Assembly (NCBI GenBank): GCA_045105115.1 | Contig: JBGCDE010000056.1 | Location: forward strand, 13,323-77,322 | DNA: 64,000 nucleotides | DNA from: Pseudomonadales bacterium | GTDB lineage: Bacteria; Pseudomonadota; Gammaproteobacteria; Pseudomonadales; JAUIET01 | Reading direction: 5' to 3' | Shown: positions 4,370-61,292 of the stretch, piece after piece | Layout: each line of letters starts with the position of its first letter | Position numbering within the stretch: position 1 is the stretch's first letter | Program-made: the position numbers and the translations under genes | Notes under the pieces: generated by a model | What the model saw: only the letters and a program-made list of their open reading frames with translations | Database searches by the model: none | What the model was told of the DNA's origin: nothing

Positions 4370-4496
4370 GTCCGGCGCTGGACTGCCTATTAGCTAGCTG
4401 GACACGCCGTGAATCCATCCATGGAGTCTCATTTTCGACATCCATGTCTCAAACGGTCCAGCTAGCTAATAGGCAGCCCAGCACCTCAGTGCCAAT
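4370..4496 (-). repeat. Core-52 foldback element, copy A (subtype 1)
   Basis: Arms 4374-4403 and 4456-4485 pair over 30 bp; the two non-Watson-Crick positions are both G:U on the minus strand. The 52-nt core is 4404-4455 (acgccgtgaatccatccatggagtctcattttcgacatccatgtctcaaacg). It is flanked by gtccggc (4370-4376) and cctcagtgccaat (4484-4496). Confidence 0.85.
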
Positions 4497-4520: not shown

Positions 4521-4665
4521 GTTTCAGTATCGATTACCCCCTTTGCGAAGGTAAAAAACGCAGGCCGAGAGAACAAAAAAGACTTTCGCAGAAAGGCTTT
4601 TTTGAGAAAGAGGGAACCGCGGAGCGGCCCAGTTGCGCAGCAAAGGGGGTAATCGATACTGAAAC
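4521..4665. repeat. Long perfect inverted repeat (25/25 bp arms) enclosing a 95-nt insert; possible distant relative of the core-52 family
   Basis: 4521-4545 gtttcagtatcgattaccccctttg is the exact reverse complement of 4641-4665. The insert contains a terminator-like hairpin and gagaaagagggaacc, which resembles gaaaagagggacc in cores D and E. Confidence 0.8.
4575..4603 (+). terminator. Rho-independent terminator-like hairpin, symmetric (A-tract / stem / T-tract), inside the 4521-4665 palindrome
   Basis: aaaaaa-gactttc-gca-gaaaggc-tttttt. It lies downstream of the hslVU-DUF971 unit and upstream of ubiE. Confidence 0.45.
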
Positions 4666-9172: not shown

Positions 9173-9929
9173 AGACGACAAAGCACTTCCCTTGGTAGAA
9201 CATCTTACCGAGTTACGCGATCGTTTACTGCGCTGTCTGATGGCGATACTACTGGTGTTTGTCGCCTTGTATTCGTTTGCGAATGAAATTTACGCTTTCG
9301 TGTCAGAGCCATTGCGTAAGTTTCTGCCAGAAGGCGCGACTATGATTGCGACCGATGTAGCGTCGCCTTTTCTAACGCCGTTTAAGCTAACCCTTGTGCT
9401 GTCAGTATTTGCCGCTGTTCCTTACTTATTGTTTCAAATTTGGTCTTTTGTGGCACCCGGTATGTATCGCCATGAAAAGCGCTTTGCAATTCCATTACTA
9501 CTGTCGAGCGTGTTGTTGTTTTATGGTGGCATTGCGTTTGCGTACTTCGTGGTGTTTCCGCTGGTCTTCGGGTTTTTCACCAGCATTGGACCCACCGAAA
9601 TGACGGTGATGACCGACATCAACAGCTATCTGAATTTTATTCTTAAACTTTTTTTCGCATTCGGTATCGCTTTTGAAATACCTATCGCCACCGTTTTGTT
9701 GGTGTGGGCTGGAATTACCACACCCGACAGCTTGGCCAGCAAACGCCGTTTTATTGTGGTCGGTTGTTTTATTTTGGGGATGCTATTAACACCGCCCGAT
9801 GTGATTTCACAAGCTCTACTCGCATTCCCCATGTGGGTTCTGTTTGAGGTTGGCGTGATAATGAGCCGCTGGATTGAAAAGGATCGTGAAGGGCAGACTG
9901 TAAAACAAAGTAAGGAAGGAAATGTCTGA
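9165..9929 (+). CDS. tatC: Sec-independent translocase subunit TatC
   Basis: PLVEHLTELRDRLLR, six predicted TM segments, and LLTPPDVISQ. Confidence 0.93.
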   Translation: MTEDDKALPLVEHLTELRDRLLRCLMAILLVFVALYSFANEIYAFVSEPLRKFLPEGATMIATDVASPFLTPFKLTLVLSVFAAVPYLLFQIWSFVAPGMYRHEKRFAIPLLLSSVLLFYGGIAFAYFVVFPLVFGFFTSIGPTEMTVMTDINSYLNFILKLFFAFGIAFEIPIATVLLVWAGITTPDSLASKRRFIVVGCFILGMLLTPPDVISQALLAFPMWVLFEVGVIMSRWIEKDREGQTVKQSKEGNV

Positions 9930-11151
9930 CGCCATTACTGGCTCTTCGGAATACTATGACCTGATTGTTGTTGGTGGCGGTATCAACGGAGTTGCTGTTG
10001 CTCAAGCCGCGGCTGCAAAAGGTCATTCAGTTTTATTACTTGAAAAATCCGCACTGGCCGCCGGCACTTCATGTGCATCCAGCAAATTAATTCACGGTGG
10101 ATTGCGATACCTGGAAAGCTACGAATTTTCTTTAGTGTATGAAGCCTTGCGCGAACGAGCGATGATGTTGCGCAACGCGCCCGATCTGGTGGCACTCAAG
10201 AAATTCTATATTCCTGTGTATCGACACACGCGTCGGGCTCCCTGGCTTATTTTTGCAGGCCTGAGCCTGTATGCCTTATGCGACCGTTTGCGGCCATCCA
10301 GTCGCTTTCGAGTGGTGCCTAAATCTGAATGGAAAGAGCTTGATGGTATTGAAACCAAAGACCTGCGTGCTGTGTTTCAGTATCAGGATGCGCAAACCGA
10401 TGACGTGGAGCTAACACGGGCTGTGATGAACTCAGCTGCAGAGCTGGGCGCCTGTGTGATGGAGCAAACCCAGCTATTGAGCGCACACTGGCATAAGGAC
10501 CACTTCAGAGTGCTCGTGAATAAGGAAGGGGCACGGGTAAATTTTCGCTGCGGCACAATTGTGAATGCTGGCGGCCCTTGGGTTAATCGCATTAACGAGT
10601 GTGTTGAACCCGCCCCCAGAACCCTGGGCATAGACTTGATACAAGGCACTCACGTAGAACTAGAGGGGCAAATGAGTGAGCGCTTCTATTACGTTGAATC
10701 GCCACGCGACGGGCGCGCAGTATTCGTCATGCCCTGGTATGAAAACACCTTGATAGGCACTACTGAGGCTCGCTTTAGCGGCAATCCAGATGATATTAAG
10801 GCGTTGGACTCATCGGTAAGATATTTGCTTGGCGTGTTTCGTCACTATTTCCCGGATTTTAATGAGGGTGCAGATGCCAGAATAGTTAGCCGCATGGCTG
10901 GTGCCCGCGTACTGCCCGAAGCACAGACCAGCGCTTTCAAGCGCTCTCGCGAAACCATTTTGTACTGGCAGCCAGACTTCACGCCTAATGGACCCGCACT
11001 GTGCACCATTTATGGTGGCAAGCTGACAGCCTGGCGCGCAACAGCAGAAAAGGTATTGAAAACTATTCAGACAACATTACCTCAACCTACAGCTAATATA
11101 GATACGAAAACACTGCGACTGCAGCGTGTCAGACAGGACCAGAAACCATGA
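9922..11151 (+). CDS. FAD-dependent oxidoreductase, GlpD (glycerol-3-phosphate dehydrogenase)-like but short (409 aa)
   Basis: YDLIVVGGGINGVAVA..LLLEKSALAAGTSCASSKLIHGGLRYLESYEFSLVYEAL is the GlpD-type N-terminus. The gene overlaps tatC by 8 nt and prlC by 4 nt. Confidence 0.7.
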   Translation: MSDAITGSSEYYDLIVVGGGINGVAVAQAAAAKGHSVLLLEKSALAAGTSCASSKLIHGGLRYLESYEFSLVYEALRERAMMLRNAPDLVALKKFYIPVYRHTRRAPWLIFAGLSLYALCDRLRPSSRFRVVPKSEWKELDGIETKDLRAVFQYQDAQTDDVELTRAVMNSAAELGACVMEQTQLLSAHWHKDHFRVLVNKEGARVNFRCGTIVNAGGPWVNRINECVEPAPRTLGIDLIQGTHVELEGQMSERFYYVESPRDGRAVFVMPWYENTLIGTTEARFSGNPDDIKALDSSVRYLLGVFRHYFPDFNEGADARIVSRMAGARVLPEAQTSAFKRSRETILYWQPDFTPNGPALCTIYGGKLTAWRATAEKVLKTIQTTLPQPTANIDTKTLRLQRVRQDQKP

Positions 11152-16216: not shown

Positions 16217-18649
16217 TTACGCCAGCGACGCCTCCCGATTATTCATATCACTATCAGCAAGCAATTCAAACTCAGGACCAAACGCTTTGAATCGAATCAA
16301 CAATACCGGCAGCAGGAACAGGTCAGCCAACAAAGCCATGCATATCGCACTGATAAGCAAACTTCCAAAACTGGCCATGGTCGCCATATCTGAAGAAAAA
16401 TGGGTTGAGAATGAAACCACTAAAATGATAGTGGTAATCACCAAGGCATGCCCAACACCGCCTATCGCTTGCCGTAACGCCTGCTGGTAATTTCCACAGC
16501 GAAAAAACTCCTGTCGCATCCGGCTGACCAGATGCACTGTGTCATCAACCGCAATGCCTATCGCAATGGTTGCGATCATCATCCGGATGTAATCCAGATT
16601 GATTCCTGCAAAGCCCATATACCCCATTGTTAGAAGTATCGGCGCCAGGTTTGGAATCATCGCCAGCGCACCTACTTTTAGCGAGCGAAAGATTATACAC
16701 ATCAACATGAATATCATTACGAAGACTAGCAAATAGCCTTTAGTGAAACTTGTGAATATATAATCTGCCAGTTTTACCCACAGCAAACCGACACCGCTTG
16801 GCTCTACTCTCAACCCGGCGTCGCTTGTATTGAACTCCGTGTCTACGTAGTCAGTAAGCACATCGAACAATTCACGAACTTTTTGAGAGCCCACCATAGC
16901 CACTCGCAAATCAACAACGGCTCTCGAAAAATCACTGGTCATGTATTTTTCAAGTTGGTCGCCGCCCGATAATTCGTACATCAGTAAATACTGAGCAACT
17001 AAATCGCGATTATCTGGCAAACGATAGTACTCAGGATCATCACCATGAAATGTTTGATTCAAGTCTTTAAGAATATCAACGATTGACAGCGACTTATGCA
17101 CTAAAGGTTGTTGGTCGGCAAACTCCTGAAAGCGCTCCAGTGCTGCCAAGTATTCCGGCGATTTCATACCGTCTTGTTCGGATTCGAAGACAAACACCAA
17201 ACTGAGCATACCGCCCATAGTGTCTTCTGCGAATTCGGTATGCTGGCGAATTTGCATGTGCGGCTTGAAATCGGTGATGAAATTGAAATCAATGCGCAGT
17301 TTACTCACGCCAATCAGCCCGGTGACTATTAAGCCAGCCGACAGCAGTATGATCAGTCCCGGTCGCTTCAGATCTACTTTGACGACCCAATCCAGAACCT
17401 TGTTAAGCCATTGCTGCTGCAGAGTCCACTGCCTTGGCTTATCTCCCCCAAATGAAAGCAGACTCAGCAATAAAGTGGCCGTTAGAAAGAACGTGCATAA
17501 AACACCGAAGGCGCCATAGAGAGATAAATTCGCAATACCTTTCAAGTCAGAAACTGCCATGGCCATAAAACCAACCGCGGTTGATAGCGCAGCGAGAAGA
17601 CAAGGATTACCGACTAGCTCCATGGTTTCTCTAAGCGCATCTCGCCGACAAAGACCATGCGACCTCGCTAAATGAAACTCCGACAGCAGGTGCACAGCCT
17701 GCGCCACACCAATAGCGATTAGCAAATTGGGCACCATCGCAAACAACATATCAATGTCCCAGCCTATCAGCGCCATAAAGGCTACCGTCATGGTCATCGC
17801 TACCAATACGACCAGCAAAGGGCCTAGCAAGGATAAAACACCACCACGGATTAATACCAAACCAAGTACCATGATAATGATCACGCTAATGCCCATTTGC
17901 GAAACAGGCTCAGAAAACGCTATTTCGTTATAGACGGTGTTGAGCTCAACATCGCCAATATTGTAAAAGTCGATGTCTTGATATTCTGGTCGGCTGAGCA
18001 AGTCTTGTATCGCGTGGCCGCTCACTTGCGGGTACAAGTTCTGCAATCCATCACCACCTTCAGGGTCATAGCGAACCATGTCGGGCGGGTCTGTGGCGGC
18101 CCGGGTCATTTCGATCACAATCGCAGCGTGCTTGCCTTCCGGCGAGACGATGTTGTTCAGATAAATATCTTTGCTAAGTATCAGATCTCTGAGCTCAAGC
18201 ATTTCTTGTTGGCTTTCAGGGAAATCATGCAAAATTTCGTGCACCTGAATATCATCACCGTCAGATTGCATGAACTCGGCAGAGCTTAGGCTCAACACAT
18301 CATTTACAAACGGTACTTCCGTTTCAAGCGCCCGACTGAGTTGTGCGATAGTGCGCATGACTTCGATGTCAAAAACACCGTGTTCTTTTTCAGGCACTGA
18401 ATACAACAGGAACGCAATTTCGTCAGATCCAAAATCTTCACGATAATCGTAATAGTGTTGATACGTTGGGTCGTCTTGATCAAAGAACGCATCCAGCGAA
18501 GAGTCACTACCAACGCCGCTAGCCACCCATGCAGACAGCGCTGCAATAAATAGAGAGGCCAACAGTACAGGCCACCGATTGTCGTGTACCCACACGGCAA
18601 AGTTGCCAAACGCATGCGAAGAACGTGCGAGATAATCTCTTGGCGCCAT
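16217..18649 (-). CDS. MMPL/RND-superfamily inner-membrane transporter (two 6-TM bundles, HpnN-like architecture)
   Basis: 810 aa with two hydrophobic blocks, each preceded by a large periplasmic loop. It is paralogous in layout to the CDS at 43489-46071 and ends 6 nt upstream of the GDPD gene. Confidence 0.8.
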   Translation of the reverse strand: MAPRDYLARSSHAFGNFAVWVHDNRWPVLLASLFIAALSAWVASGVGSDSSLDAFFDQDDPTYQHYYDYREDFGSDEIAFLLYSVPEKEHGVFDIEVMRTIAQLSRALETEVPFVNDVLSLSSAEFMQSDGDDIQVHEILHDFPESQQEMLELRDLILSKDIYLNNIVSPEGKHAAIVIEMTRAATDPPDMVRYDPEGGDGLQNLYPQVSGHAIQDLLSRPEYQDIDFYNIGDVELNTVYNEIAFSEPVSQMGISVIIIMVLGLVLIRGGVLSLLGPLLVVLVAMTMTVAFMALIGWDIDMLFAMVPNLLIAIGVAQAVHLLSEFHLARSHGLCRRDALRETMELVGNPCLLAALSTAVGFMAMAVSDLKGIANLSLYGAFGVLCTFFLTATLLLSLLSFGGDKPRQWTLQQQWLNKVLDWVVKVDLKRPGLIILLSAGLIVTGLIGVSKLRIDFNFITDFKPHMQIRQHTEFAEDTMGGMLSLVFVFESEQDGMKSPEYLAALERFQEFADQQPLVHKSLSIVDILKDLNQTFHGDDPEYYRLPDNRDLVAQYLLMYELSGGDQLEKYMTSDFSRAVVDLRVAMVGSQKVRELFDVLTDYVDTEFNTSDAGLRVEPSGVGLLWVKLADYIFTSFTKGYLLVFVMIFMLMCIIFRSLKVGALAMIPNLAPILLTMGYMGFAGINLDYIRMMIATIAIGIAVDDTVHLVSRMRQEFFRCGNYQQALRQAIGGVGHALVITTIILVVSFSTHFSSDMATMASFGSLLISAICMALLADLFLLPVLLIRFKAFGPEFELLADSDMNNREASLA

Positions 18650-20359: not shown

Positions 20360-20484
20360 GTCCGGCTTTAAATCGTGTATTGGCTAGCGAGACACGCCGT
20401 AAACCCATCCATGGGGGCTTGTGTTCGAGGTCCCTCTCTCACACAGTCTCGCTAACCAATACACGATTTAAATCCTCTGTGCTA
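20360..20484 (-). repeat. Core-52 foldback element, copy B (subtype 2)
   Basis: Arms 20367-20393 and 20446-20472 pair at 27 positions with one exception (C/A on plus = G:U on minus). Core 20394-20445 is acgccgtaaacccatccatgggggcttgtgttcgaggtccctctctcacaca. The gtccggc flank at 20360-20366 is identical to that of copy A. Confidence 0.85.
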
Positions 20485-20536
20485 TATCTCACCATCAGTT
20501 CGCCCAAATCTTTACGCGCTTTCAAAGCAAGTGCAT

Positions 20537-20665
20537 ATTGGCACTGAGGCTTCGGATTGAGTGTTTGACTGGCGGGACTGTTTGAGACAGGATGTCGAAA
20601 ATCAAGCCCCCATGGATGGGTCCACGGCGTGTCCCGACAGTCAAACACTCAAGTCGGAGCCGGTC
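20537..20665 (+). repeat. Core-52 foldback element, copy C (subtype 1)
   Basis: Arms 20548-20578 and 20631-20661 form a 31-bp stem with 2 G:U and 2 purine-purine mismatches. Core 20579-20630 is tgtttgagacaggatgtcgaaaatcaagcccccatggatgggtccacggcgt. The 5' flank attggcactgagg (20537-20549) is identical to the copy A flank. Confidence 0.85.
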
Positions 20666-22584: not shown

Positions 22585-23268
22585 ATGAAATTAAAAGCCA
22601 GCATCGCATTAGTATCAGCTATGACCTTGGCCGGTTGCGCCACGCAGCCAGGCGAAGACAGAAACAACGCAGCCATTGGCGCGGCGATTGGCGCCGTAGC
22701 CGGTGCAGTGATTGGCGGTCAAACCGACAACGACGGTAATCGTGACCGAGGTGTAATCGCCGGTGCCGTTATTGGTGCAGCAGCCGGCGCGGGCATTGGC
22801 CATCACATGGACAAGCAAGAAGACGAATTTCGTGCCGCTTTAGAAGAAGAAGAACGACGCTCTGAAATTGAGATTGAGCGAGTACGTGATGACTTACTCA
22901 AACTGACCTTCGAGAACGAAGTCACCTTCGACGTTGACAGTGCGGAAGTAAAAACACATTCCTATTCGTCACTCGAGAAAGTAGCCCAGGTTATGAATAA
23001 GTACGGCTCAACTGCTGAGATTGTTGGTCATACCGATTCAACCGGTTCAGACAGTTACAATTTGCAGCTTAGCGAGAAGCGGGCTTACAGTGTTAAGAAC
23101 TTTCTGGTTAGCAGTGGAGTACCGGGCAGCATGTTGAGCTACCGCGGACGTGGTGAAGCAGAGCCACGCGCTGCCAATGACAATGCCGCAGGTCGGCAAC
23201 TGAATCGACGGGTTGAGTTGTTTGTACAACCCAGCGATGCGACTCGTAGTAATGTAGTGGGTCGTTAA
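22585..23268 (+). CDS. OmpA-family lipoprotein (glycine-zipper N-terminus plus OmpA_C peptidoglycan-binding domain)
   Basis: MKLKASIALVSAMTLAGCAT lipobox, Gly/Ala zipper AIGAAIGAVAGAVIGG, and OmpA_C motifs FDVDSAEV..IVGHTDSTGSDSYNLQLSEKRAYSV..NRRVEL. Confidence 0.85.
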   Translation: MKLKASIALVSAMTLAGCATQPGEDRNNAAIGAAIGAVAGAVIGGQTDNDGNRDRGVIAGAVIGAAAGAGIGHHMDKQEDEFRAALEEEERRSEIEIERVRDDLLKLTFENEVTFDVDSAEVKTHSYSSLEKVAQVMNKYGSTAEIVGHTDSTGSDSYNLQLSEKRAYSVKNFLVSSGVPGSMLSYRGRGEAEPRAANDNAAGRQLNRRVELFVQPSDATRSNVVGR

Positions 23269-23286
23269 GGCCATCGAGCCTGGAGG

Positions 23287-23315
23287 AAGCCCGCTTTATG
23301 CGGGCTTTTCTTTTT
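23287..23315 (+). terminator. Rho-independent terminator of the OmpA-family gene
   Basis: aagcccgc-tttat-gcgggctt followed by ttcttttt. Confidence 0.8.
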
Positions 23316-23338
23316 GTGGAATCAATTAACGGAGTTGC

Positions 23339-27395: not shown

Positions 27396-27604
27396 GAATA
27401 TCTCCTTGTTGAGTGTCTACATAGCTTTAACGCAGCATATCCAAATAAGGGGTTAAGGGCCACGAAAAAACTCATTGCTCTTGGTCGGCCGCGTCTTGAT
27501 TTTCTGATCGAGAACGGTATTGCGTGCAGTACCTCAGTGCCACACCCAACTCTGTAAAAATTTGTAAAGTAGAAAAACTGAAATTTTAATGTGGCAGGTT
27601 TTAA

Positions 27605-27718
27605 GGCAGAGGTCGTTACCCCATGTGCCAGACTGTTGAAAAGAGGGACCTTTTCAACAAGCCCCCATGGATGGGTTTACGGCGTGTCTGGCACATGGGG
27701 TAACGGCCTCTGCCGAAC
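27605..27718 (+). repeat. Core-52 foldback element, copy D (subtype 2)
   Basis: Arms 27605-27633 and 27686-27714 form a 29-bp stem with a single T:G wobble at 27613/27706. Core 27634-27685 is tgttgaaaagagggaccttttcaacaagcccccatggatgggtttacggcgt. Confidence 0.9.
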
Positions 27719-51377: not shown

Positions 51378-51511
51378 GTCACTCTATAACACGAAGCACA
51401 ACCCTGCGCTCCTAGGTCCAAATTGCGGGCGCAATCTGTCGAAGAAGTTCTCATTATGACCCGAGAACACACCACACATAAAAAAGGCCTCTTGCGAGAC
51501 CTTTTGTATGT

Positions 51512-51553
51512 GTGGCGCGCCCTGAGAGATTGATTCGATCGGCCTAAGGGCCG
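51512..51553 (-). pseudogene. Internally deleted tRNA-Arg remnant
   Basis: It keeps the tRNA 3' end (tggcgcgccctgagagatt) and a 5'-end-like ctaagggc, but the anticodon, D and most T arm sequences are missing. Confidence 0.6.
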
Positions 51554-51654
51554 CTCTCACCCCTGCGGGGCGTAGTCGCTGCGCTTCTACGTCCAAATTG
51601 CTGACGCAATCTGTCGAAGGAGTTCTCATCATGACCCGAGAACACACCACACAT

Positions 51655-51680
51655 AAAAAAGGCCTCTTGCGAGACCTTTT
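51655..51680 (-). terminator. Rho-independent terminator downstream of tRNA-Arg (duplicated at 51479-51504)
   Basis: On the minus strand: aaaa-ggtctc-gcaa-gaggcc-tttttt. Confidence 0.7.
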
Positions 51681-51687
51681 GTATGTG

Positions 51688-51764
51688 TGGCGCGCCCTGA
51701 GAGATTCGAACTCCCGACCACCTGGTTCGAAGCCAGGTACTCTATCCAGCTGAGCTAAGGGCGC
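51688..51764 (-). tRNA. tRNA-Arg (anticodon UCG), CCA encoded
   Basis: Minus strand GCGCCCT-TA-GCTC-AGCTGGATA-GAGT-A-CCTGG-CTTCGAA-CCAGG-TGGTC-GGGAG-TTCGAAT-CTCTC-AGGGCGC-G-CCA. All four stems pair. The anticodon loop is CT-TCG-AA. Confidence 0.92.
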
Positions 51765-61174: not shown

Positions 61175-61292
61175 TTGAGGCTGAATTAAACGCGCGGCGC
61201 CCGGAACTGTTGAAAAGAGGGACCTTTTCAACAAGCCCCCATGGATGGGTTCACGGCGTGTTCCGGGCGTCGCGTGTTTAATTCAGCCGGCG
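61175..61292 (+). repeat. Core-52 foldback element, copy E (subtype 2)
   Basis: Arms 61179-61207 and 61260-61288 form a 29-bp stem whose two exceptions are both G:T wobbles on the plus strand. Core 61208-61259 differs from core D at one base. Confidence 0.9.

Follow-up and report, generated by a model that had tools for sequence, protein, structure and literature searches.

Compact relatives of the TwoAYGGAY RNA motif dispersed in gammaproteobacterial genomes, with strong support for selection on one folded strand

The window, i.e., the whole stretch of 64 kb analysed here, contains exactly five exact matches to the core sequence CCATGGATGGnTnnACGGCGTG, against 0.01 expected by chance, and each of them belongs to one copy of a hairpin element (copies A to E; Table 1). 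No sixth copy was found in the window with the covariance model R1 run with its filters off. In the MFE folds the five copies have outer stems of 27-31 bp around a conserved centre, and these stems have in common only the GG at the outer end and the GAC/GUC at the inner end. The cores of E and D are almost identical. Copies A, B, D, and E lie 17-57 nt past a stop codon; the site of A is located between a GBBH-like gene and ubiE. There is also a weakly conserved leader directly outside the basal stem, which reads TGGCACTGA ahead of the opening GG in the window and its relatives, CTGTC(A/G)(G/A)A ahead of GG in Xanthomonadales, and GCGAA ahead of GG in Microbulbifer. C, B, and the loci L089 and L010 have the same leader motif as copy A, whereas the orthologous site of the locus L120, which is unoccupied, lacks it.

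Table 1. Elements and other features of the window. Wobble pairs are stem pairs read base by base on the element strand; "swapped" marks pairs whose two bases had been given in reverse order in the preliminary description.
Feature	Positions	Strand	Details
Exact matches to core CCATGGATGGnTnnACGGCGTG	4403-4424; 20393-20414; 20610-20631; 27665-27686; 61239-61260	-; -; +; +; +	
Copy A	4374-4485	-	P1 30 bp, 2 G:U; model R1 91.2 bits
Copy A, P1 arms	4374-4403 and 4456-4485	-	
Copy A, core	4404-4455	-	AUGGAU loop in both P2 and P3; tandem G.A pairs in P2
Copy A, 5' leader	4486-4496	-	ATTGGCACTGA (element strand), adjoining the opening GG of P1 on its 5' side
Copy A, wobble pairs	4376/4483; 4382/4477 (swapped)	-	
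Perfect 26-bp inverted repeat	4521-4546 and 4640-4665		93 nt between arms
Terminator-like hairpin	4574-4604		A-run/T-run; between the arms of the inverted repeat
Copy B	20367-20472	-	P1 27 bp, 1 U:G; R1 97.9 bits; P2 with AGGGAC loop and tandem G.A pairs
Copy B, wobble pair	20384/20455 (swapped)	-	
B/C doublet			Divergent; B left member (-), C right member (+)
B/C spacer	20473-20547		75 bp; contains both 5' leaders, ATATAGCACAGAGGA for B (-) and CATATTGGCACTGA for C (+)
Copy C	20548-20661	+	P1 31 bp, 2 G:U, one A.G and one G.A; R1 75.5 bits; P2 loop AGGAU
Copy C, wobble pairs	20552/20657 (swapped); 20555/20654	+	
Weak rnk leader match	23203-23316	+	RF01772, full length; 26 bits against a gathering score of 55, E = 3.5
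Putative leader relic left of D	27532-27542	-	TGGCACTGAGG / CCTCAGTGCCA; resembles the 5' leader of a lost minus-strand partner
Copy D	27605-27714	+	P1 29 bp, 1 U:G; R1 101.4 bits; P2 GUUGAAAAG-AGGGAC-CUUUUCAAC
Copy D, wobble pair	27613/27706	+	
85-nt direct repeat	51447-51531 and 51622-51706		One mismatch; contains a hairpin
tRNA-Arg	51688-51764	-	3' end overlapped by the second 85-nt repeat
Copy E	61179-61288	+	P1 29 bp, 2 G:U; R1 97.2 bits
Copy E, wobble pairs	61192/61275; 61197/61270	+	

Some other features of the window were observed in passing. The second unit of an 85-nt direct repeat overlaps the 3' end of a tRNA-Arg gene, the first unit carrying a partial duplicate of that tRNA end, and the pair resembles the att-like scar of an integrated element. 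The weak match to the rnk leader family is probably due to chance. Behind an OmpA-like gene, the window and the related locus L206 carry sulfotransferase and lactamase-fold genes, and at this position the locus L208 (12717-20921) carries a type I-F CRISPR-Cas operon (Cas1, Cas2-3, Csy1-4).

According to the MFE folds and to a gapless alignment of 55 copies (alignment A1), the element is a three-way junction of about 110 nt that is formed by the helices P1, P2, and P3. P1 is the basal stem of 27-31 bp, and its sequence is different in every copy. P2 is a covarying 10-bp hairpin with the hexaloop A(U/G)GGA(U/C), and it has tandem G.A pairs in many copies. A single A links P2 to P3, which consists, in this order, of GCC, CCC-AUGGAU-GGG, a bulge UUYAC, and GGC, and which is almost invariant apart from one pair that covaries from C:G to U:A. 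The dinucleotide GU closes the core ahead of the 3' arm of P1, and the whole segment after the P3 hairpin reads UUYACGGCGU. Covariation agrees with this model: 95.6% of the cells of A1 are paired, a share that falls to 41-42% if the partners are shifted by one column, and changes on both sides were found in 33 of its 40 pairs (9 of the 10 in P2, 23 of the 24 modelled in P1).

The first loop, that of P2, contains GGA in every copy; it reads AUGGAU in many loci, among them A, whereas C has AGGAU and the copies B, D, and E have AGGGAC. The second loop is AUGGAU in all the copies because the scan pattern required this sequence there. The tandem G.A pairs of P2 are present in A, B, C, and many other loci (24 G.A/A.G cells in columns 30/45 and 31/44), whereas D and E have Watson-Crick pairs at these positions. 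In five copies from Halieaceae (L006, L022, L076(-), L102, and L107) an extra G+C-rich hairpin of 13-15 nt was observed in the 3' strand of P2, and the segment from the 5' arm of P1 to the core pattern measures 44-46 nt instead of the usual 31. As for P1, the 13 pairs of copies that have identical cores show a median arm identity of 0.65, compared with 0.50 for shuffled arms, and a comparison of the arms with the window and with about 200 loci revealed no spacer-like matches elsewhere.

The preliminary description of this DNA had claimed that all the transition-type mismatches of the five stems are G:U on the strand that ends the core with ...ACGGCGU. Reading the sequence base by base, we have found that the eight stem pairs cited (Table 1) are all G:T or T:G on that strand. 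The two bases had been swapped at one pair each in A, B, and C, which is immaterial, and the G:U class was right throughout. There is no A:C pair in any of the five stems of the window, and a one-sidedness of eight out of eight indeed corresponds to 1/128, the value calculated there. The mismatches of the window other than G:U are all A.G or G.A, two of them inside the stem of C and two outside that of B, at weakly paired positions just beyond the stem base.

A larger set of copies was obtained by scanning genomes, one per species, with the core pattern, which yielded at least 118 loci. Nearly all the loci among the matches listed are labelled Gammaproteobacteria, and the carriers among them include Stenotrophomonas, Xanthomonas, Luteimonas, Microbulbifer, Cellvibrio, Marinobacter, Rheinheimera, Halieaceae, Pseudohongiella, Aeromonadaceae, Sodalis, and others. 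The element is absent from E. coli, and only a single match was found on plasmids. Two loci labelled otherwise, L047 (a "Bacillus subtilis" contig) and L097 (a "Nocardiopsis" scaffold), have about 67% G+C and carry elements and flanks of the Stenotrophomonas type; they look like contaminating contigs.

The stems of these copies were extended without gaps and with an equal penalty for G:U and A:C, and thus the tally procedure cannot favour either of them. In the 118 copies among the matches listed there were 100 G:U and 9 A:C pairs. After removal of the stems with similar arms, the remaining 58 non-redundant stems among these matches, from about 100 gammaproteobacterial genomes, gave 82 G:U versus 6 A:C (binomial p = 4e-18). 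Among the matches listed, the ratio of G:U to A:C was 19:0 for elements sense to both neighbouring genes, 20:0 for antisense elements, and 17:0 for those between convergent genes; it was 51:2 where the element strand is locally G-rich and 37:5 where it is C-rich. The bias of the 82:6 set is tied to the orientation of the element, and not to gene direction or to GC skew. In the window itself, six of the eight 8-kb bins have a negative GC skew and two a skew near zero, and the trend is never reversed. This suggests that the window belongs to one replichore, and yet it carries copies on both strands (A and B on minus; C, D, and E on plus). A small sample of eight copies, taken from complete genomes, was distributed equally, four on the presumed leading and four on the presumed lagging strand, assuming that the records start at oriC. 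The preliminary description had named two outcomes that would speak against its reading, i.e., equal numbers of G:U and A:C in a larger set of copies, or a bias that follows the replication strand; neither appeared, since the larger set keeps the bias and the bias does not track gene direction or GC skew.

A second asymmetry points to the same strand, as A.G and G.A mismatches together number 31 and C.U and U.C mismatches 4 among the matches listed. Moreover, of 80 copies among the matches listed, 61 have a more stable fold on the element strand than on the complementary one, with a mean difference of 3.8 kcal/mol (p = 4e-9). P2 taken alone has no G:U excess among these matches (4 G:U versus 5 A:C, which are small numbers). 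The earlier proposal of selection for a single-stranded hairpin, formed by the strand with ...ACGGCGU, has therefore gained weight, since an independent sample about ten times larger keeps the bias and a sub-threshold match to the family RF01731, described below, lies on the same strand. We conclude that selection on one folded strand, the one ending ...ACGGCGU, is strongly supported. We infer the single strand from the G:U and G.A asymmetries, because the covariation of P1 alone could stem from a DNA palindrome. A G:T wobble is tolerated in folded single-stranded DNA (ssDNA) too, and thus the asymmetry alone cannot separate RNA from ssDNA. RNA is favoured as the functional molecule.

With respect to the neighbouring genes, it had been stated that the selected strand is antisense to the flanking genes for all the copies but C. 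This is correct in the window, where the selected strand of A, B, D, and E runs antisense to the genes on both sides and that of C runs sense, but it does not hold as a property of the family. Among the matches listed, 30 elements are antisense, 20 are sense, 15 lie between convergent genes, and 3 between divergent genes, according to heuristic gene calls that are noisy in high-GC genomes and that placed 36 copies inside spurious ORFs. The general rule is a position near the 3' end of a gene and away from divergent promoter regions. Many elements form doublets: 18 divergent, 3 convergent, and 2 tandem doublets were found among the matches listed, with a median spacing of 272 bp. The hits of model R1 repeat this pattern, of which B/C is the example in the window. 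Since divergent doublets are common, sense and antisense copies are often found side by side.

Scans for sigma-70 consensus promoters and for intrinsic terminators detected none at the boundaries of the five copies, and no proper site with a U-run after a G+C-rich stem was found there on either strand. A sigma-54 reading of the TGGCAC leader was rejected by eye, because the GC is either missing or one base too close to the GG. As four of the five copies are antisense, they would need promoters of their own or antisense read-through if they are transcribed.

The flanking proteins point to an uncultured gammaproteobacterium of Cellvibrionales-like affinity as the source of the window. The sites of the window were also compared with orthologous, syntenic loci of related genomes. 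At site A there is no element in L120, L121, and L122, and L119 has a degraded remnant. The window has about 250 extra bases at this place, which correspond to copy A plus about 140 bp; within the latter are a terminator-like hairpin and 26 nt that repeat the ancestral flank perfectly in inverted orientation. The right arm of this inverted repeat is the ancestral DNA upstream of ubiE, which is single in L120 and L119, and the left arm is located inside the insertion. A different insertion of about 74 nt, flanked by the direct repeat ACGGATTAAGA(T/A)CCC, was observed upstream of ubiE in L119 (about 9860-9935), and the ubiE intergenic spacer seems to collect small insertions.

At the B/C and D sites of L206, L207, and L208 there was no match to model R1, and in the orthologous PAP2-M48 spacer of L206, which has no model match, neither B nor C can be aligned. 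A scan of metagenomes with the M48 protein retrieved no close relatives. The relatives without a model match at A, B/C, and D share 92-95% protein identity with the window. However, L206 has at its otherwise unoccupied D site an 18-nt sequence, GGACACGCGTGAACCCAT (16671-16688), that looks like a relic of the core 3' end in the opposite orientation, and the short sequence to the left of D in the window is tentatively assigned as the probable leader relic of a lost partner of D. These two sequences suggest that the D site once held a doublet, of which each lineage has lost a different part, and some of the empty sites are thus probably losses.

Site E is occupied in a sister genome as well, by the orthologous copy L124 9845-9958. 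P2 is identical throughout in these orthologues, as are 50 of the 52 bases of the core, whereas the four-fold degenerate sites of the E-flanking genes are only 50-57% identical between the window and L124. The arms of P1 share 61% identity, compared with 50% for shuffled arms, and yet they still pair. It is possible that the two E copies were inserted independently at the same spot. The simplest reading is that the core is strongly constrained and that single mismatches in the long helix have almost no selective effect, the helix drifting at about the neutral rate through G:U and G.A intermediates. Active hypervariation of P1 was set aside as the main reading because the four-fold sites are nearly saturated. 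It also appears improbable that P1, instead of being inherited from a donor copy, is made anew at each insertion, when about 30 nt of the target would be duplicated in inverted orientation, or regenerated by template switching between the arms. The hints in this direction are the copies that have identical cores and almost unrelated stems, and the 26-nt inverted flank copy beside A; if it were true, a mobile structured RNA or ssDNA would build its own clamp from the local sequence.

A search of the whole window against Rfam, at both gathering and E-value thresholds, returned only the tRNA, and a literature search with the sequence string of the element gave nothing relevant. When a stretch of 151 nt was searched alone, and only then, copy A matched the full model of the TwoAYGGAY motif (RF01731) on the element strand with 36.3 bits and E = 1e-4, the gathering score being 43. 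The two AUGGAU loops, the AG linker, and the segment "guuuacgaCGG" line up with their counterparts in the model. The same model did not match B, C, or D at E <= 10, and none of 18 loci from other genera matched it at the gathering score. The elements of the window are a compact variant or relative of the TwoAYGGAY motif that has been missed by Rfam. This motif was described by Weinberg et al. 2010 (PMC2864571), and later by Gardner and Eldai 2015 (PMC4333381) and Li et al. 2026, and has had no assigned function since 2010; binding of CsrA had already been proposed for it (PMC4333381; bioRxiv 10.64898/2026.09.22.753630).

Considering these data together, we lean towards the reading that the element belongs to a dispersed, multi-copy family of structured RNAs, a compact TwoAYGGAY variant that is likely to work as a two-GGA binding module for Csr/Rsm proteins. 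The functional molecule would be the strand ending ...ACGGCGU, folded into the three-way junction. P1 would be constrained only to pair and would drift at about the neutral rate, always with one to three mismatches of the kinds that RNA tolerates, G:U first and then G.A. This drift through tolerated mismatches would be the source of the asymmetry noticed in the window. P1 may thus clamp the RNA and display the two GGA hairpin loops, about 23 nt apart, to one Csr/Rsm dimer, and the many copies may titrate Csr/Rsm, or a single copy may recruit the protein to its own transcript. At the DNA level the element would be an old repeat with slow turnover, in which head-to-head doublets near gene 3' ends are gained and then deleted. 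At the sequence level, both loops fit the CsrA consensus CANGGANG, and the GGA motifs are 23 nt apart, within the range of 10-63 nt taken for paired sites. The pair that closes the GGA loop is C-G in 42 of the 55 copies and G-C in 11. The invariant UUYACGGCGU is not explained by CsrA binding.

The selected strand could instead be DNA, the hairpin being the substrate of a mobile-element enzyme that acts on folded ssDNA, for instance an HUH/Y1 transposase like those of IS200/IS605 or REP-RAYT, and the core its recognition site. Such a substrate would fit the differing occupancy between close relatives, whose A, B/C, and D sites gave no model match, and also the inverted doublets, the conserved leader outside P1, the tolerance of ssDNA hairpins for G:T wobble, and the empty promoter scans at the five copies. 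We nevertheless regard this alternative as doubtful. No transposase gene was seen adjoining any copy of the window and no target-site duplication was seen, the arms are copy-specific, unlike REP/REPIN arms or MITE terminal repeats, the orientation is unrelated to GC skew, and GGA loops together with tandem G.A pairs are typical of RNA and of protein binding. In addition, site E is held in both sisters, with a near-identical core at near-saturated divergence, which suggests a constraint at the level of the host.

If the element is an RNA, it might act through its unique 30-bp stem, either by RNase III cutting or by pairing with the 3' end of a convergent mRNA, as a locus-specific antisense regulator in which the core is a protein handle. 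The fixed length of P1 and its unique sequence in each copy would agree with this, as would the many copies that face a converging gene with their 3' end about 45 nt from its stop codon. We consider it unlikely, because the arms match nothing else in the window and in about 200 loci, and because the near-neutral drift of P1 speaks against a sequence-specific target.

It is quite improbable that the functional RNA is the opposite strand, in the form of stable 3'-UTR or processed mRNA fragments (as Ysr224) with a stabilising or terminating role. Read on the opposite strand, the mismatches of the stems are A:C and C.U, i.e., those that are tolerated least; this strand also folds less stably, its loops would have AUCCAU in place of the conserved GGA, and no U-run stands behind the stems. 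Copies do lie 17-80 nt beyond stop codons, four of the five in the window are antisense to genes, and the model of Ysr224, a family known from RNA-seq, hits the Sodalis element on its complementary strand (82.9 bits against a gathering score of 70); however, among the matches listed 20 of the 50 copies between co-directional genes are oriented the other way. Finally, it is highly improbable that no folded strand is selected at all and that the palindromes are kept by template switching between the arms, with a G:T excess due to strand-biased mutation or repair: the concerted evolution of the arms, their length included, and the perfect 26-bp inverted copy of the ancestral flank beside A are compatible with it, but the 82:6 bias follows element orientation in both gene-orientation and both GC-skew classes and is present on both strands of what is apparently one replichore, and the core and P2 show RNA-like covariation and conservation.

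These results have several consequences. The strand test does not depend on orientation and, with 82 G:U to 6 A:C, fixes the strand that is under structural selection. The present analysis also reveals a compact subfamily, invisible to Rfam, in many gammaproteobacterial genera among the matches listed, in which the element is split into a strongly conserved core that resembles a protein handle and a helix that drifts almost neutrally. No Rsm-sponge RNA is known to occur in Xanthomonadaceae; if this is so, a dispersed family with two GGA loops would be, from its sequence, a concrete candidate there.

In TwoAYGGAY itself, a shared basal stem bears two hairpins whose loops read AYGGAY (bioRxiv 10.64898/2026.09.22.753630); one stem has tandem G.A pairs, and conservation of the external stem is poor (PMC4333381). 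It is found in a median of 11-23 copies per Pseudomonas genome, and 68% of its doublets are divergent, with a median spacing of 249 bp (bioRxiv 10.64898/2026.09.22.753630). The element described here likewise has two successive hairpins on a shared basal stem, as seen in the MFE folds and in the covariation of A1, with AUGGAU in the second loop, as demanded by the scan pattern, and also in the first loop of A and many other loci, and with tandem G.A pairs in one stem, on the same strand. The sequence of its external stem is unconserved, a CsrA-type motif is present, and it is multi-copy in Gammaproteobacteria, with divergent doublets about 250 bp apart. It differs in that the window variant lacks the 5' strand of the lower stem of hairpin 2, the 3' strand UUYACGGCG being invariant and unpaired, in that its first loop is often AGGGAC, AGGGAU, or AGGAU, and in that its basal stem of 27-31 bp is nearly perfect. 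The "extended" TwoAYGGAY of Pseudomonas has extra hairpins and a pseudoknot, none of which was seen in the variant. Upstream (5') arrays of repeats of 5-6 nt have been reported for Pseudomonas, and such GMTBT arrays were not found or enriched at the copies of the window. In Stenotrophomonas doublets (L027, L097, L117, L023, and L032) we have observed tandem repeats of 5-6 nt on the 3' side of each element (GCTCTG, GCTTTG, GCCGTT, and similar), followed by a small G+C-rich palindrome, and each doublet region is thus one large composite inverted repeat.

In Enterobacterales the same genomic element has been annotated as Ysr224 (RF02770), an sRNA of Yersinia known from RNA-seq, but on the other strand. 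Only the Sodalis copy passes the gathering score of its model, at L033 7247-7352 (-), i.e., on the reverse complement of the element; the model gives at most 16 bits with the copies of the window (16.2 for A, on the opposite strand, below the gathering score of 70). The G:U asymmetry argues that the Ysr224 annotation is on the wrong strand or reflects read-through transcripts, and Rfam seems to list one repeat twice, with a family for each strand.

The element resembles the sponges CsrB, RsmY, and RsmZ in that GGA is exposed in a hairpin loop closed as C-ANGGAN-G and in that paired sites lie within the reach of one dimer. In those sponges a single gene carries many sites, whereas here there would be two putative sites per unit in many dispersed copies, for which no promoter was identified. 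With REP/REPIN sequences and MITEs (ERIC, Correia) the element shares the form of short intergenic hairpin repeats near gene 3' ends, a variable copy number, and presence/absence polymorphism. No GTAG motif was found in the flanks inspected, no terminal inverted repeats are shared between copies, and there is no target-site duplication at the junctions of A, B/C, and D when compared with the unoccupied sites. Readings as an integron attC site, a REP/REPIN, a MITE, or a terminator were rejected because it is the arms, and not the centre, that vary. REPINs and MITEs have conserved arms and a loop that varies, whereas in the element described here the centre is conserved and the arms are specific to each copy.
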